A stretch of 64,000 bases of DNA from Candidatus Parcubacteria bacterium (GCA_963814275.1 CAWFCE010000002.1:298537-362536); one strand, 5' to 3'. Numbered from the stretch's first letter, positions 42,483-64,000 are shown. A program made the numbers and translations. The notes: generated by a model from the letters alone, not told the origin.

Positions 42483-44078
<1,596 letters not shown>

Positions 44079-44618
44079 GAAAAGTTTTTTGACAGGTTTA
44101 CTTGCCTGTTTAAGCAATGTTGTGTAAACACGAACAGTGCTTAAGGAATATATGAGGAAAATGAGTTTCCTAATTGTTTGTACTTGGTTGTTGCAAATTG
44201 GCGCTTATTAGCGCCATATTATATTCGGTTGTTAATGACCGCAAACGCGATAAATTTGCCTTCCCGCCAGATAAGCAAAAAACAGACCTTACAGCCTGTT
44301 ATCAAGTGTAAGCGGGTCGGTTTTTGGTTTTGTTTTTAGATTGTCATGGATTTATCGCAATTTGTTATTGCAATAATAATATTAAAGGATTTGCCGAAAT
44401 CTGTCAAGGCAATTCAGATAGTAGATAACGGATAGCAGATAGCAGCCAATTTTTTATTTAATATTAAATGATTTATTTAATAAACGAGCTAATATTAGTT
44501 TCCCGGGGTGTGATTAAGGAAAATTATAAATTTATATACAATCAAATTCCGGTTATTTATCAAGAGTATTTGCACAGGTTTTGAACATATTTAAAATGCG
44601 TTTTAAAAAAATTATTTT

Positions 44619-47771: not shown

Positions 47772-49352
47772 ATGCATATTCTAATTATCATTTTTTCCAT
47801 TCTATTTACTGTTTTAGCGGTCAAGCGTTTGAATTGGGCGGTTTTTTTGATGTTGGCCCTGCTGCCTGCTTATCAAATCCGATTTCAGGTTCTGGGTATA
47901 CCTTTTACTCTGCTTGAAACAATGATCCTGACCTCATTTGCTATTTGGCTCATCAGGAACTGGAAGCAGATATTAGAGAATTTAAAAAATAAAATAAAGA
48001 ACCGTTTACAAATTACAAATTACAAATTACAAATTACCACGCGTTATCCTTTCGACCTCGAGATTATCGCCCTGCTCATCATATCCTGGATCGCGATCGT
48101 GGTGGCCGGATTTTCGAATGAAGCGCTGGGAGTATGGAAGGCATATTTTTTCGAACCGGTGCTGGTGTTTATTTTGGTGATGAATGTTTTCGGTAATAGC
48201 GCAAAAGACGCAGACTTCACGCAAAAGGCGCAAAATGCCGCCCAGCCGAAATCGGGCAAGGGAATTGAGCCGGTTTTGTGGGCGTTGACTCTGGGGGCGG
48301 GTTGGATAGCGCTGTGGGCGATTATCGAGCGGATCACCGGCTGGACCGCCCACGGGAATTTTTGGCCGCGCGTGACCGGTCCGTTTCCTTATCCCAATGC
48401 GCTGGGGCTTTATTTGGGCCCGGTCTCGGTTCTATTGGTCGGTTGGATTTTGAACAAGATGCAAGACGCAAGATACAAGATACAAAATGACAAAATATTT
48501 ATTGTGCAAATTTTGTCTATTGCGCTTGTGGTACTATTGTCTTTGTTCGCGATCATGCTGGCCAGGAGCGAAGGGGCGATCATCGGGATCCTGGCGGCGG
48601 TATTGGTCATGGGGTTGTTTATGTCCGGTAGTAAAAGAAAGAAGGTCCGTTGGCTGCCGGCCGGCATTACCGGGTTAATATTACTTTTCGTTTTTATAAG
48701 CGCGCCGCTCTATCTCCTGGCCGTACCGCGCGACCAGTATTTCGATTTCCATAATGGCGGGCTTAATTACCTGTCGGACAAGATAATGCTTAAGGACTTG
48801 TCGGGGGAGATCAGGAAACAGCAGTGGCGGGAGACCTGGGCGATGATGAAAGACAATTGGCGCTGGCTGACCGGCACCGGCCTGTCCGGTTATCGGGCGG
48901 CGATCGCGCCGTACCACCAGCCGGGGATATTCTTCAACAGCGGCCGTGATCCGGAATTCCACCGCCACACGGTCTGGGACGAAGCCTACCGCAACGCGCA
49001 TTGGCAGCCGGTTGAGATATATATGTATCCGCACAATTTACTCCTGAATTTCTGGACGGAGCTGGGGCTGGCCGGAGTAATTTTGTTTATCTGGATAATC
49101 CTTAAATTTATTTATTTAGCGTTTACCAGTTACAAATTGCAAACCGCAAATCCAACCGGTGGCCCCCAAAAGGAATATTTACTTTTGGGTTTACTGGGTG
49201 CGATAATAGTTATTGTCGTCCATGGCATTGTCGATGTGCCGTATTTCAAAAACGATCTGGCGGTTTTGTTCTGGCTGCTGGCGGCAATGATGGGTTTTAT
49301 CGGAATATCCGCCCATATCAAAGAAAAAAAAGATAATATTGATGCAGGTTGA
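47772..49352 (+). CDS. O-antigen ligase-like (Wzy_C domain) polytopic membrane protein
   Basis: 526 aa and ~12 TM helices, with a large loop containing ...LARSEGAIIGILAAVL... and HPHNLLLNFWTELGLAG (Wzy_C-type H..N....E.G). A word tract (acaaatt)x4 lies at 48008-48038. Confidence 0.65.
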   Translation: MHILIIIFSILFTVLAVKRLNWAVFLMLALLPAYQIRFQVLGIPFTLLETMILTSFAIWLIRNWKQILENLKNKIKNRLQITNYKLQITTRYPFDLEIIALLIISWIAIVVAGFSNEALGVWKAYFFEPVLVFILVMNVFGNSAKDADFTQKAQNAAQPKSGKGIEPVLWALTLGAGWIALWAIIERITGWTAHGNFWPRVTGPFPYPNALGLYLGPVSVLLVGWILNKMQDARYKIQNDKIFIVQILSIALVVLLSLFAIMLARSEGAIIGILAAVLVMGLFMSGSKRKKVRWLPAGITGLILLFVFISAPLYLLAVPRDQYFDFHNGGLNYLSDKIMLKDLSGEIRKQQWRETWAMMKDNWRWLTGTGLSGYRAAIAPYHQPGIFFNSGRDPEFHRHTVWDEAYRNAHWQPVEIYMYPHNLLLNFWTELGLAGVILFIWIILKFIYLAFTSYKLQTANPTGGPQKEYLLLGLLGAIIVIVVHGIVDVPYFKNDLAVLFWLLAAMMGFIGISAHIKEKKDNIDAG

Positions 49353-49467: not shown

Positions 49468-50223
49468 GTGGCCAAGCTGATACTACAAAAATTCATCGTC
49501 GATTCAGGCTTTTGCTCGCGGCGCCAGGCGACCGAATTGATCAGGGCGGGGAAAGTAACGGTAAACGGTGAAGTGGCTGAGCCGGGCATGAAAGTATTTT
49601 CCAATGACGATGTCCGGATAGGAAAGAAGCGTTTACCCGGCGAGCCGGAAAAAATCTACCTGATCATAAATAAGCCGGATGGCTATGTCTGCACGAACCG
49701 GACTTTTACCGGTGAGAAGAACGTTTATGACCTGCTGCTTGACCGCCAGGGAGAAAAAGCGTATCCGAAACAGCGCCTGTTCGTGGTTGGCCGTCTGGAC
49801 AAGAACAGCCGCGGCTTAGTGTTAATCACCAATGACGGCGATATGGCCCAGCGGGTGTCGCATCCCCGGTTCGGGCATGAAAAAGTATATGCAGTAAAAT
49901 TGCGGATGACGAATGACGAATGCCAAAAGAATAAAGATAGATTGATAAAGAACCTGGTAAAGGGGGTCGATATCGGCGAGGGAGACGGTGTTGTCAGGGC
50001 AAAAAAGGCTGAGTATTTGGGTGAAAATAAATTCAAAGTAATCTTGACCCAGGGGGTGAAACGGCAGATCAGACGGATGTTCAAGACTCTGGGCATCGAA
50101 GTCATCGATCTCAAGCGGACGCGTATCGGCTGTACCAAATGCGGCATTGAATTGGGCGATCTGCGCTGTGGCCGTTGGCGCAAACTCAAGCTGGAAGAAA
50201 TAGAAAAATTACAGGAGAGTTAA
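49468..50223 (+). CDS. RsuA/RluB-family pseudouridine synthase with an S4 domain
   Basis: GTG start. S4 domain: LQKFIVDSGFCSRRQATELIRAGKVTVNGE. Catalytic motif GRLDKNSRGLVLITNDG. A word tract gatgacgaatgacgaatgcc lies at 49905-49924. Confidence 0.85.
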   Translation: MAKLILQKFIVDSGFCSRRQATELIRAGKVTVNGEVAEPGMKVFSNDDVRIGKKRLPGEPEKIYLIINKPDGYVCTNRTFTGEKNVYDLLLDRQGEKAYPKQRLFVVGRLDKNSRGLVLITNDGDMAQRVSHPRFGHEKVYAVKLRMTNDECQKNKDRLIKNLVKGVDIGEGDGVVRAKKAEYLGENKFKVILTQGVKRQIRRMFKTLGIEVIDLKRTRIGCTKCGIELGDLRCGRWRKLKLEEIEKLQES

Positions 50224-50341
50224 TGGTCAAGTGCTAAAAGTCAAATTCGGAGAGGTGGCTCGAGTGGTTGCCCGCGACATAGCCGCTTGGCGGCTCGCGC
50301 GGGTCCGCGCACCCGCGAAGCGGGATGTCGCGGAAAGGCTT

Positions 50342-50587
50342 ATGTATTATACATATTTTTTATTTAGTAAAAACCATAAAAAGGTTTATGTCGGTTCGAC
50401 CGAAGATTTGAAGACCAGAATCAAAACACATAATGAAGGCAGGGTGCAATCGACAAGATATTATCGGCCATGGGTAATTGTGTATTATGAGGCCCATCGC
50501 AATAAAACATTGGCAAGAAAAGCCGAACTTTTCTATAAATCCAGCCAAGGCAGGCGGCAAGTAAAAAAGAAATTAGGTTTAGAGTAA
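50342..50587 (+). CDS. Small GIY-YIG nuclease (81 aa; 82 codons incl. stop), copy 1
   Basis: MYYTYFLFSKNHKKVYVGSTEDLKTRIKTHNEGRVQSTRYYRPWVIVYYEAHRNKTLARKAELFYK... carries the GIY (YTYFL) and YIG (VYVGST) motifs, the conserved Arg and the conserved Glu. The track's upstream extension translates the tRNA fragment and hairpins, so I rejected it. Confidence 0.8.
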   Translation: MYYTYFLFSKNHKKVYVGSTEDLKTRIKTHNEGRVQSTRYYRPWVIVYYEAHRNKTLARKAELFYKSSQGRRQVKKKLGLE

Positions 50588-50697
50588 TATTATTATAGAT
50601 TTCCGGAGAGGTGGCTCGAGTGGTTGCCCGCGACGTAGCCGCTTGGCGGCTCGCGCGGGTCCGCGCACCCGCGAAGCGGGATGTCGCGGAAAGGCTT

Positions 50698-50943
50698 ATG
50701 TATTATACATATTTTTTATTTAGTAAAAACCATAAAAAGGTTTATGTCGGTTCAACCGAAGATTTGAAGACCAGAATCAAAACACATAATGAAGGCAGGG
50801 TGCAATCGACAAGATATTATCGGCCATGGGTAATTGTGTATTATGAGGCCCATCGCAATAAAACATTGGCAAGAAAAGCCGAACTTTTCTATAAATCCAG
50901 CCAAGGCAGGCGGCAAGTAAAAAAGAAATTAGGTTTAGAGTAA
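50698..50943 (+). CDS. Small GIY-YIG nuclease, copy 2
   Basis: The protein is identical to copy 1, with one synonymous tcg-to-tca change. Confidence 0.8.
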   Translation: MYYTYFLFSKNHKKVYVGSTEDLKTRIKTHNEGRVQSTRYYRPWVIVYYEAHRNKTLARKAELFYKSSQGRRQVKKKLGLE

Positions 50944-51053
50944 TATTATTATAGATTTCCGGAGAGGTGGCTCGAGTGGTTGCCCGCGACGTAGCCGCTT
51001 GGCGGCTCGCGCGGGTCCGCGCACCCGCGAAGCGGGATGTCGCGGAAAGGCTT

Positions 51054-51300
51054 ATGTATTATACATATTTTTTATTTAGTAAAAACCATAAAAAGGTTTA
51101 TGTCGGTTCGAACCGAAGATTTGAAGACCAGAATCAAAACACATAATGAAGGCAGGGTGCAATCGACAAGATATTATCGGCCATGGGTAATTGTGTATTA
51201 TGAGGCCCATCGCAATAAAACATTGGCAAGAAAAGCCGAACTTTTCTATAAATCCAGCCAAGGCAGGCGGCAAGTAAAAAAGAAATTAGGTTTAGAGTAA
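51054..51300 (+). pseudogene. GIY-YIG nuclease copy 3, frameshifted
   Basis: gtcggttcgAaccgaag has one extra base relative to copies 1 and 2, and the frame breaks right after the YVGS motif. Confidence 0.75.
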
Positions 51301-51317
51301 TATTATTATAGATTTCC

Positions 51318-51408
51318 GGAGAGGTGGCTCGAGTGGTTGAAGGCGTCGCTCTCGAAAAGCGATGTGCGTGCAAGCGTACCGGGAGTTCGAATCTCCCCCT
51401 CTCCGCCA
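51318..51408 (+). tRNA. tRNA-Ser(CGA), CCA encoded
   Basis: ggagaggtggctcgagtggttgaaggcgtcgctctCGAaaagcgatgtgcgtgcaagcgtaccgggagttcgaatctccccctctccgcca, with a long variable arm. Confidence 0.9.
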
Positions 51409-51487
51409 TTCCAATTTTTGGTTTACGATTTTCGATTTAGATTATAAGCTTAATTCGAAAATCGAAAATCGTAATTCGAAAATTTCC

Positions 51488-51559
51488 GCACCCGTCGTTC
51501 AACGGATAGGACACAAGTTTCCGGAACTTGCGATCGAGGTTCGATTCCTCGCGGGTGCA
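51488..51559 (+). tRNA. tRNA-Arg(CCG)
   Basis: gcacccgtcgttcaacggataggacacaagtttCCGgaacttgcgatcgaggttcgattcctcgcgggtgca. Confidence 0.85.
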
Positions 51560-60120: not shown

Positions 60121-60544
60121 GATAATTACCAAATAAAGACAAAATTAATAGTAATCATCTTTTATGAGTTACTCCATAACTACTAAATGCAAAAGCGGTT
60201 GATGCACTAGCTGGTTTAAAGTGTGGTCAAACCGCTTTAAAGCGGTTTTTTGTTTCAAATCTGGCTTAGTCCTTTCAATTAAAGAGAAAAACGGTCCAAT
60301 CGAATTCAGGAATCTATTAATCAACTCGGATGCTGTGAAAACAAATTCGGAGCATCCGGATATAGTTCGTAGATTCGGATTATGAGTTGAACTTTAACAA
60401 TTCAATATAGTCCGCAGTTCCCGACAGAACTGCGGACAATTAAGAGCATCAAACCATCCGGCATCGCAATGCCGGATAATCGAAGAGTCCGTTCATAGAG
60501 CGATCTATGGACAAAAACGTTTTTGAAACCAAAAACGTGGGAAA

Positions 60545-64000
<3,456 letters not shown>

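Follow-up and report, generated by a model that had tools for sequence, protein, structure and literature searches.

The window, that is, the whole 64,000-nt stretch of DNA that was analysed, comes from a Candidatus Parcubacteria bacterium (GCA_963814275.1 CAWFCE010000002.1:298537-362536) and contains a tandem array that ends at an intact tRNA-Ser(CGA) gene, which is followed by tRNA-Arg(CCG) (Table 1). The neighbours of the array are Wzy_C, RluB and RNase T. Each unit comprises, in this order, a 5′ fragment of tRNA-Ser, a twin hairpin, a 5-nt stub in which the tRNA sequence resumes, 2 nt, a GIY-YIG ORF and a 17-nt spacer, and the tRNA-Ser fragment of the first unit bears the resident upstream flank. 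Differences between units were found at 50279 (A/G, within the element), at 50398 (G/A, synonymous) and as a frameshifting 1-nt insertion in the third unit; on account of this near-identity, the units are regarded as very recent duplicates. The 64-kb window holds ten tRNA genes, and hairpin pairs occur in the array only; its rRNA genes are unlinked and carry insertions. No promoter-like site was detected by a window scan between the upstream gene and the array. An intrinsic terminator was rejected, as the element is followed by AAAGG, without a T run, and the terminator scan returned nothing there.

Table 1. Features of the array, with positions counted from the first nucleotide of the window.
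Feature	Position	Strand	Basis or remark
Tandem array	50248..51339	+	TRF: period 356 bp, 3.1 units, 99% matches
Displaced tRNA-Ser(CGA) 5′ fragment (nt 1-22), copy 1	50249..50270	+	22/22 nt identical to 51318-51339 of the intact tRNA
Twin hairpin copy 1, hairpin A	50271..50303	.	CCCGCG..CGCGGG closing stem; apical AGCCGC-TTG-GCGGCT helix
Twin hairpin copy 1, hairpin B	50304..50334	.	TCCGCG..CGCGGA closing stem; apical CCCGC-GAA-GCGGG helix
Stub in which the tRNA resumes (aaggc = tRNA nt 23-27), then divergence	50335..50339	+	Identical to 51340-51344
GIY-YIG nuclease ORF copy 1, 81 aa + stop	50342..50587	+	Pfam PF01541, E 6.9e-16; tblastn; AlphaFold pLDDT 93.7
tRNA-Ser 5′ fragment, copy 2	50605..50626	+	Part of the repeat unit (TRF)
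Twin hairpin, copy 2 (G at 50635)	50627..50690	.	Hairpin finder, folding
GIY-YIG ORF, copy 2, intact	50698..50943	+	ORF list, tblastn
tRNA-Ser 5′ fragment, copy 3	50961..50982	+	Part of the repeat unit (TRF)
Twin hairpin, copy 3	50983..51046	.	Hairpin finder, folding
GIY-YIG ORF copy 3, pseudogene, +1 frameshift	51054..51300	+	tblastn match split over two frames; ORF list
Intact tRNA-Ser(CGA), end of array	51318..51408	+	ARAGORN; Rfam tRNA 47.7 bits

The original prediction had described a GC-rich 62-nt core that immediately follows the tRNA fragment in every unit and lies in the leader of the nuclease ORF. This placement was borne out: the core is present at 50272-50333, 50628-50689 and 50984-51045, follows the 22-nt 5′ copy of tRNA-Ser(CGA) with one extra C between them, ends 8 nt ahead of the ATG of the 81-aa ORF, and has a GC content of 73-78%, compared with 25-45% around it. 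The complete element is, however, slightly larger than this core and spans 64 nt (50271-50334).

The core had further been proposed to fold into a four-way junction, with a 9-bp outer stem that encloses three small hairpins. These pairings can be drawn, with the outer stem perfect in copy 1, and the core folds far better than shuffled sequence, both as RNA (-44.9 kcal/mol, z -5.2, none of 200 shuffles as good) and as DNA (-29.3 kcal/mol, z -5.5). Yet when the alternatives were compared over the 64-nt element, the junction was the least stable of three folds, at -40.9 kcal/mol in copy 1 and -40.5 kcal/mol in copies 2 and 3. The minimum-energy fold was a nested rod (-46.4 kcal/mol in copy 1, -46.0 kcal/mol in copies 2 and 3), while two tandem hairpins scored -42.2 kcal/mol in copy 1 and -45.9 kcal/mol in copies 2 and 3. 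The energies gave the junction no advantage over the rod and tandem folds, and among the copies in the window the rod equals or exceeds the tandem fold in stability. The A-to-G difference between units had been read as a change that preserves pairing in the outer stem. It carries no comparative weight, because the three units are sister copies, and it is uninformative about that stem; what the G does, at the site equivalent to 50279 in copies 2 and 3, is to give hairpin A more pairs when the element adopts the tandem fold.

The decision between folds came from homologues, of which 55 genome and 80 metagenome loci (135 others in all) were gathered, every one via the GIY-YIG protein. Across 39 distinct closing-arm sets, 99.8% of cells kept tandem pairing and 115 cells showed double changes; the sets were chosen by a tandem-hairpin finder, a choice that favours the tandem fold. 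For the same 39 sets, the cross-pairing needed by the four-way junction or the rod was maintained in 79.7% of cells, about 20% being unpaired. As a counter to this finder-based selection, 25 long-type elements were aligned unguided with MAFFT and folded with RNAalifold, and the resulting consensus consisted of two tandem hairpins, with the end-to-end stem absent and the junction not recovered. Unconstrained folding likewise returned the tandem fold in 58 of 68 unique elements. Individual loci illustrate how the outer stem fails while the tandem stems are compensated: in L012, the first hairpin has changed to TCCGTT/AACGGA while the second retains TCCGCG/CGCGGA, and in L015 the outer stem would break at three of six positions. 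As an independent check, the ends set by the structure fall at exactly the nucleotide where identity to the tRNA breaks off. Homologues keep the tandem fold only, and neither the four-way junction nor the rod; the assignment of hairpins A and B in copy 1 is based on the fold energies together with the covariation of homologous hairpins.

These results also bear on the idea that a cloverleaf-like junction completes the truncated fragment into a tRNA mimic, which we consider very improbable despite the drawable pairings, the perfect outer stem of copy 1 and the strong folding relative to shuffles. ARAGORN and Rfam (E<=10) found no tRNA-like signal in the fragment plus element, their matches in the array region being the intact tRNA-Ser and tRNA-Arg only, and Rfam scans of the whole window at gathering threshold and of 50150-51500 at E<=10 placed no family there. 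Moreover, the outer stem is lost in homologues, the minimal 30-nt members of the family are unable to form a junction, and the same element turns up in D-, anticodon and T-loops as well as within a protein gene.

Most tRNA-linked homologues have a GC-rich insert upstream, which always consists of two adjacent hairpins. Whereas unconstrained tandem-hairpin finders gave thousands of chance matches, a constrained finder detected 82 twin hairpins in 538 kb compared with 0, 0 and 0 in three shuffles. The generic form reads TCnnGC...GCnnGA twice, without a spacer, over 30-84 nt and with many compensatory changes. A minimal 30-nt form is exemplified by TCAGCC-CGA-GGCTGA TCCGCC-TTG-GGCGGA, and enlarged forms, including that of the window, bear additional apical helices. 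A covariance model of the minimal 30-nt form, run on the window with filters off, yielded noise (best E 0.13) and did not reach the enlarged copies. The mean GC content of the twin hairpins is 68%, against 42% for the loci overall. That the window element is a 64-nt enlarged, lineage-specific copy of this GC-rich family is well supported. As the hairpin sequences are conserved across loci, repair-generated filler was ruled out as their origin.

Several properties of the family concern the level at which it acts. G.U pairs are rare (22 of 1383), both strands are nearly equal in stability, and the TC...GA ends are self-complementary; an RNA-versus-DNA test of strand asymmetry gave 17 vs 7 (p 0.086), which is weak. 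Such properties fit a mobile DNA palindrome and not a dedicated RNA structure. They weigh against the hairpins acting in cis within the 5′ leader of the nuclease mRNA, where they would either block ribosome access or serve as a processing or stabilising structure, and so hold a potentially toxic nuclease low or part its mRNA from the tRNA fragment. The position of the window's element just ahead of the ATG speaks for such a role, as do the 40 of 70 tRNA-linked ORFs in which no more than 60 nt separate the end of a strict hairpin pair from the start codon (13 more have one nearby). With no promoter-like site upstream, read-through of fragment, hairpins, ORF and tRNA is plausible, and in the GIY-YIG enzyme I-TevI control of translation by a hairpin is established. 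Against it, the distance from the hairpins to the ATG ranges from 7 to >30 nt, no consistent Shine-Dalgarno motif or spacing is sequestered in homologues, and pairs are also located downstream of tRNAs without a following ORF and in frame within a protein gene. We therefore judge an RNA cis element rather improbable. The translational regulator of the original prediction may still operate where a copy abuts the ATG; it does not stand as a general role, given the hairpin pairs downstream of tRNAs, at ORF-less loci and inside a coding region.

The twin hairpins are inserted into tRNA sequence. In 57 of 79 elements, the next 6 nt are the tRNA's own continuation of the 5′ flank, compared with 8-13 in permuted controls. 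A structure-blind search for split-tRNA junctions (8 + 6 exact nt) returned 1755 inserts, was swamped by chance and was dropped. The tRNAs concerned are Ser, Cys, Tyr, Ile, Arg and Pro-like, with 39 sites in the D-arm loop, 27 in the anticodon loop and 9 in the T-loop, and the consensus in the loop is YYG|AR; insertion occurs 3′ of the short YYG motif, and target duplication is absent. In the window, the insertion point is in the D-loop, between nt 22 and 23 of tRNA-Ser(CGA). The host of the hairpin pair is a displaced, non-functional tRNA remnant, and an intact tRNA stands alongside. A self-splicing or archaeal-type tRNA intron was discarded as an explanation, since an intact tRNA accompanies each interrupted piece and no intron family was matched.

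Single loci can hold identical elements at more than one tRNA position (L013, 1571 and 2222; L069, 520 and 926), and in-frame copies of 30 and 60 nt occupy one shared site in the Wzy_C membrane-protein gene of two loci (L006 and L009), 1.1-1.5 kb away from the ORF. The view of the twin hairpins as a small DNA module that moves within patescibacterial genomes is well supported. REP/BIME with RAYT and IS200/IS605-derived palindromic elements would be expected to have an associated Y1 (HUH) transposase and a conserved tetranucleotide beside the hairpin; insertion 3′ of a short motif without duplication recalls IS200/IS605, and the ORFs of the window region include no transposase. An integrase island was likewise rejected, as the 356-bp unit contains the 81-aa ORF alone and repeats the 5′ end, not the 3′ end, of the tRNA.

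The same layout recurs in dozens of independent Patescibacteria assemblies and with several tRNA species. In its left-hand type, the tRNA runs from nt 1 to the insertion point; then come the hairpin pair, a stub in which the tRNA sequence continues, the ORF and, 2-30 nt past the stop codon, an intact tRNA. The stub measures 5 nt (n=8), 6 nt (n=17), 7 nt (n=3) or 8 nt (n=2), with a mode of 6. The right-hand type is the mirror image and is located downstream of the intact tRNA, with a 5-7-nt stub, the hairpin pair and the 3′ part of the tRNA (L003, L013, L020, L021, L042, L132 and L138). Judged from these arrangements, the outcome would amount to the insertion of ORF, spacer and tRNA 1..n beside the hairpin pair, with duplication of ~6 bp; an equivalent description would have hairpins, stub, ORF, spacer and tRNA 1..n inserted together at n|n+1. 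The stub of ~6 nt could be inherited and not made at each event. One Logan contig (L136) stops at the hairpin.

The 81-aa product is a bare GIY-YIG domain, in which Y5, Y16, G18, R26, H30, N31 and E62, residues of catalytic type, are invariant in 21 homologues. By profile, the solved structures closest to it are those of the UPF0213 proteins BH0048 and EF2693 and of the SLX1 nuclease domain, with E values from 1.5e-8, the best UPF0213 value, to 1e-4; the relevant structures are PDB 6seh, 7cq2, 4xlg, 1zg2 and 1ywl. The predicted structure superposes on SLX1/UPF0213 with a TM score of 0.70, an rmsd of 1.5-2.6 Å and 28-30% identity, and its fold also matches I-TevI, although I-TevI and UvrC rank below SLX1/UPF0213. 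All relatives of the protein are from Patescibacteria (CPR), which, with the unlinked and insertion-bearing rRNA genes, places the source organism in that group, and none was found in viral contigs; an exact look-up of a 66-aa database entry (P0001) gave no record. SLX1 cuts branched DNA. It has an extra RING/PHD domain and a partner, SLX4, whereas the 81-aa protein lacks the extra domain. We know of no function for UPF0213 proteins, and the sources searched contained no link of SLX1 or UPF0213 to hairpin elements or tRNA genes. The company of palindromes extends beyond the tRNA-linked members: subfamilies not linked to tRNA are bracketed by inverted repeats of 14-23 nt in 36 of 49 loci, compared with 1 of 49 when shuffled, and one such relative (L050) is located inside 23S rRNA with inverted repeats on its flanks. 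The family as a whole therefore keeps company with DNA palindromes.

A link between a DNA structure and the nuclease was one of three roles put forward in the original prediction, alongside the tRNA mimic and the translational regulator, and it fared best. Watson-Crick pairing, strand symmetry, the nature of the element as an inserted module and the SLX1/UPF0213 affinity of the protein all point to it; contact between protein and hairpins is putative. Within loci that reach 1.5-3 kb to each side, 73 of 77 hairpin pairs are within 300 nt of an ORF. If an ORF is counted as tRNA-linked when a same-strand tRNA follows within 130 nt downstream, 53 of 70 tRNA-linked ORFs have a hairpin pair, as opposed to 7 of 54 others. 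Both associations derive from protein-ascertained loci only and are open to ascertainment bias.

The alternative at this point is that the palindrome is an independent selfish element (of MITE, REP or DHE-like type) without functional link to the nuclease, moved by host recombination or an unlinked enzyme. It would gather in remnants because these are dispensable copies of its preferred target, the cassette merely making the remnants, and the purging of insertions from functional tRNAs would explain the confinement. Hairpin pairs without an ORF nearby (L137 and L138), the distant copies in the Wzy_C coding region and several pairs within single remnants (L004, L005 and L120) are all in keeping with this account; there are also ORFs without an upstream pair (L005, L021 and L042). 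Random colonisation would not predict, however, the constant 5-8 nt between the remnant boundary and the nearest pair on both sides of the cassette. The proximity of nearly all pairs to an ORF, the palindromes tied to other subfamilies of the protein and the membership of the latter in the structure-specific SLX1/UPF0213 branch likewise oppose it, and we hold an independent palindrome to be unlikely.

Synteny indicates how the cassette is distributed. The window and two related genomes (L137 and L138) share the order Wzy_C - RluB - ... - tRNA-Ser(CGA) - tRNA-Arg(CCG) - RNase T. In L138, whose RluB is 62% identical, the cassette is absent from the site where the window has three, and a 3′ remnant of tRNA-Arg carries a second type of hairpin pair. 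In L137 (RluB 64% identical), the identical 22-nt fragment is followed by a minimal hairpin pair, the stub, 40 nt and a different intact tRNA-Ser, with no nuclease gene. More distant genomes (Wzy_C 28-49% identical) have a GIY-YIG gene at the same place, with 59-66% protein identity; the ORF adjoins tRNA-Ser(CGA) and Wzy_C in these, while the nearest relatives are without it. Such patchiness is what the gain-and-loss cycle of a homing element would predict. The displaced fragment is unlike the intact tRNA in four loci (L009, L061, L018 and L137), in two of which (L018 and L137) the resident tRNA was replaced. This mismatch implies that the incoming DNA brought its own tRNA or co-converted the resident one. 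Patchy distribution and replacement of the flanking target, by which homing endonucleases are recognised, are thus both found here.

Taken together, the element is probably, in our cautious estimation, a double-hairpin palindrome that is mobile, operates at the DNA level and is coupled to a nuclease cassette of the free-standing homing type. The hairpin pair seems to mark how a selfish cassette invades tRNA genes and leaves a working tRNA behind. In the proposed mechanism, the hairpins would extrude from DNA as a cruciform or as single-strand hairpins, and the structure-specific nuclease would cut beside them, about 6 nt from the hairpin foot. The break would be repaired by copying ORF and tRNA from a carrier allele, so that the nuclease gene could spread in the manner of free-standing homing endonucleases; the tRNA, which is essential and single-copy, would be restored, and the hairpin-bearing remnant would stay as a scar. 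Re-insertion may have given rise to the three units of the window, although unequal recombination between the 22-nt repeats would be the simpler route. In the transcript, the same hairpins, located 8 nt ahead of the ATG, may in addition reduce translation of the nuclease.

A more specific proposal, which we advance tentatively and consider somewhat doubtful, is that the twin hairpin is the address label of structure-guided homing, and that palindrome and nuclease form a two-component element that reads DNA shape and heals the essential gene it invades. A mobile palindrome would first enter loops of single-copy tRNA genes; a minimal SLX1-like nuclease would then cut ~6 nt from the extruded hairpins; and repair would copy the nuclease gene and the intact tRNA from a carrier. 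Were the nuclease to recognise tRNA sequence instead of hairpins, the carrier's own intact tRNA would still be a target.

Among known systems, there are the double-hairpin elements (DHEs) of fungal mitochondria, whose mobility was inferred from their sporadic distribution (Paquin et al. 2000, as summarised in PMC10085805). DHEs resemble twin hairpins in being short, GC-rich within an AT-richer genome and built of two adjacent hairpins, and in having several copies, some of them identical across sites, which lie between genes and in RNA genes (PMC10085805). The twin hairpins differ in being bacterial, in residing in tRNA loops or remnants, in their GIY-YIG linkage and in their ~6-nt stub, so the likeness is architectural only. 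The mobile GC clusters of yeast mitochondria, whose mobility is proposed to be aided by organelle-encoded endonucleases (PMC4478555), are comparable in that they, too, are palindromes rich in GC, which multiply, diversify through substitutions and mergers, and undergo exchange by recombination. They carry a putative target-site duplication, however, whereas twin hairpins are clean insertions, and they are not specifically tied to tRNA genes or to one nuclease gene (PMC4478555). What characterises double-hairpin elements and GC clusters, namely adjacent GC-rich hairpins, here supported by covariation, together with evidence of mobility, is found in the twin hairpins.

For the nuclease side, the closest parallel is SegB of phage T4, a small intergenic nuclease gene beside tRNA genes that is patchy among relatives and whose flanks are replaced; flank replacement at SegB-type sites fits break repair from a carrier allele (PMC2330249). 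SegB and I-TevI have a DNA-binding domain and recognise sequence, whereas the 81-aa protein described here consists of a catalytic domain alone, and this domain is of the SLX1/UPF0213 branch. The present cassette also differs from SegB in leaving a duplicated piece of tRNA with a hairpin pair at the junction, and its cleavage activity is presumed.

Rickettsia palindromic elements are longer than twin hairpins, at about 100-150 bp. They are palindromic repeats that can be inserted in frame in protein genes (PMC1166351, PMC1458961; review PMC10969869), as is the case for the Wzy_C copies of L006 and L009. They differ in that they are not twin hairpins and have no tie to either a nuclease gene or remnants of tRNA genes. 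Non-intron insertions with GIY-YIG ORFs have been reported in CPR rRNA genes (PMC11270868), in the same host group and with the same protein family; the subject of that paper is rRNA genes, with no mention of tRNA, and the tRNA-linked architecture with twin hairpins is absent from it. Our literature searches returned no account of minimal GIY-YIG genes coupled to twin hairpins within remnants of tRNAs, and the layout of tRNA piece, twin hairpin, ~6-nt stub, minimal GIY-YIG gene and intact tRNA appears, as far as we could find, to be previously undescribed.

In practical terms, twin hairpins break short-read assemblies and create tRNA pseudo-fragments and spurious ORF calls. If the proposed mechanism holds, a selfish gene can occupy an essential single-copy tRNA gene of a tiny genome and yet not kill the host. 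This would tie these bacterial elements to the long-puzzling mobile GC palindromes of mitochondria, and would suggest that the stand-alone UPF0213/SLX1-like nucleases, which are widespread, have DNA hairpins or cruciforms as a substrate. Should structure-guided homing prove true, the cassette would represent a two-component bacterial mobile element of an undescribed kind and would provide a function for the UPF0213 branch.

A second type of twin hairpin, marked by C..G ends, was seen in two of the loci gathered for comparison through the small GIY-YIG protein, L018 and L138 (the latter a syntenic relative of the window locus), and is exemplified by the sequence CCCCGTC-ATCC-GACGGGG CGCCCCGG-TGAATA-CCGGGGCG. 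One of these two copies sits within a tRNA-Ser fragment, in its anticodon loop, and has a different GIY-YIG ORF downstream; the other occupies the T-loop of a 3' remnant of tRNA-Arg, without an ORF. In comparison locus L020, hairpin pairs were found on either side of an ORF and a tRNA, identical in sequence save for their terminal base pairs, which are exchanged between the two (T..A/C..G versus C..G/T..A). In L011, a hairpin pair interrupts tRNA-Ser at position 3|4; because the GGA at its end restores the tRNA 5' end, ARAGORN still reports an intact tRNA, which starts inside the element.

Twin hairpins were also found within a protein gene. In L006 and L009, they occupy one common site of a Wzy_C/O-antigen-ligase-like gene, after ...FVNIF, and both are in frame. 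In the syntenic locus L137, RluB and the tRNA fragment have between them an ORF of 109 aa whose PRA-PH/MazG-like match is weak; this ORF is missing in the window and in L138.

Coordinates of hairpin elements, repeats and genes in the window and the comparison loci
Locus	Position	Feature	Detail
L018	3284-3325	C..G-ended twin hairpin	
L138	3467-3508	C..G-ended twin hairpin	
L020	2910-2987; 3368-3445	flanking hairpin pairs	
L011	3250-3333	hairpin pair in tRNA-Ser	
L006	1867-1926	twin hairpin in Wzy_C-like gene, 60 nt	+20 residues, no stop codon
L009	1462-1491	twin hairpin in Wzy_C-like gene, 30 nt	+10 residues, no stop codon
L137	3254-3583	109-aa ORF	
L137	3780-3925	palindromic motif	
Window	42486-44084 (-)	16S rRNA gene	
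Window	47772-49352	Wzy_C-like ORF	
Window	48006-48037	7-nt tandem repeat	TTACAAA x 4.6, perfect
Window	51411-51486	AT-rich palindromic repeats	
Window	60541-64000 (+)	23S rRNA gene	
Window	near 62765-62868 and 63009-63098	palindromic segments in 23S insertions	

Other repeats in the window comprise a tandem repeat within the Wzy_C-like ORF and AT-rich palindromic TTCGAAAATCG-type repeats between tRNA-Ser and tRNA-Arg, which are resembled by a motif in L137 and explain the weak miRNA-like Rfam matches. A Logan contig of the same organism from a short-read assembly (L136, ERR11571143) ends at 2129, exactly where the hairpin element begins, a break that is expected of a tandem repeat. The 16S and 23S rRNA genes of the window are unlinked, and the 23S stretch spans 3460 nt against model positions 1-2813 only, so that it holds about 650 nt of insertions, palindromic segments among them.

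Subfamilies of the same small GIY-YIG protein without tRNA linkage were considered in loci L033-L051 and L067-L135 (for example L077, L118 and L130; also L050, whose copy is located within 23S rRNA). Inverted repeats of 14-23 nt enclose them in 36 of 49 loci, and the left arm often stops about 6 nt upstream of the ATG.
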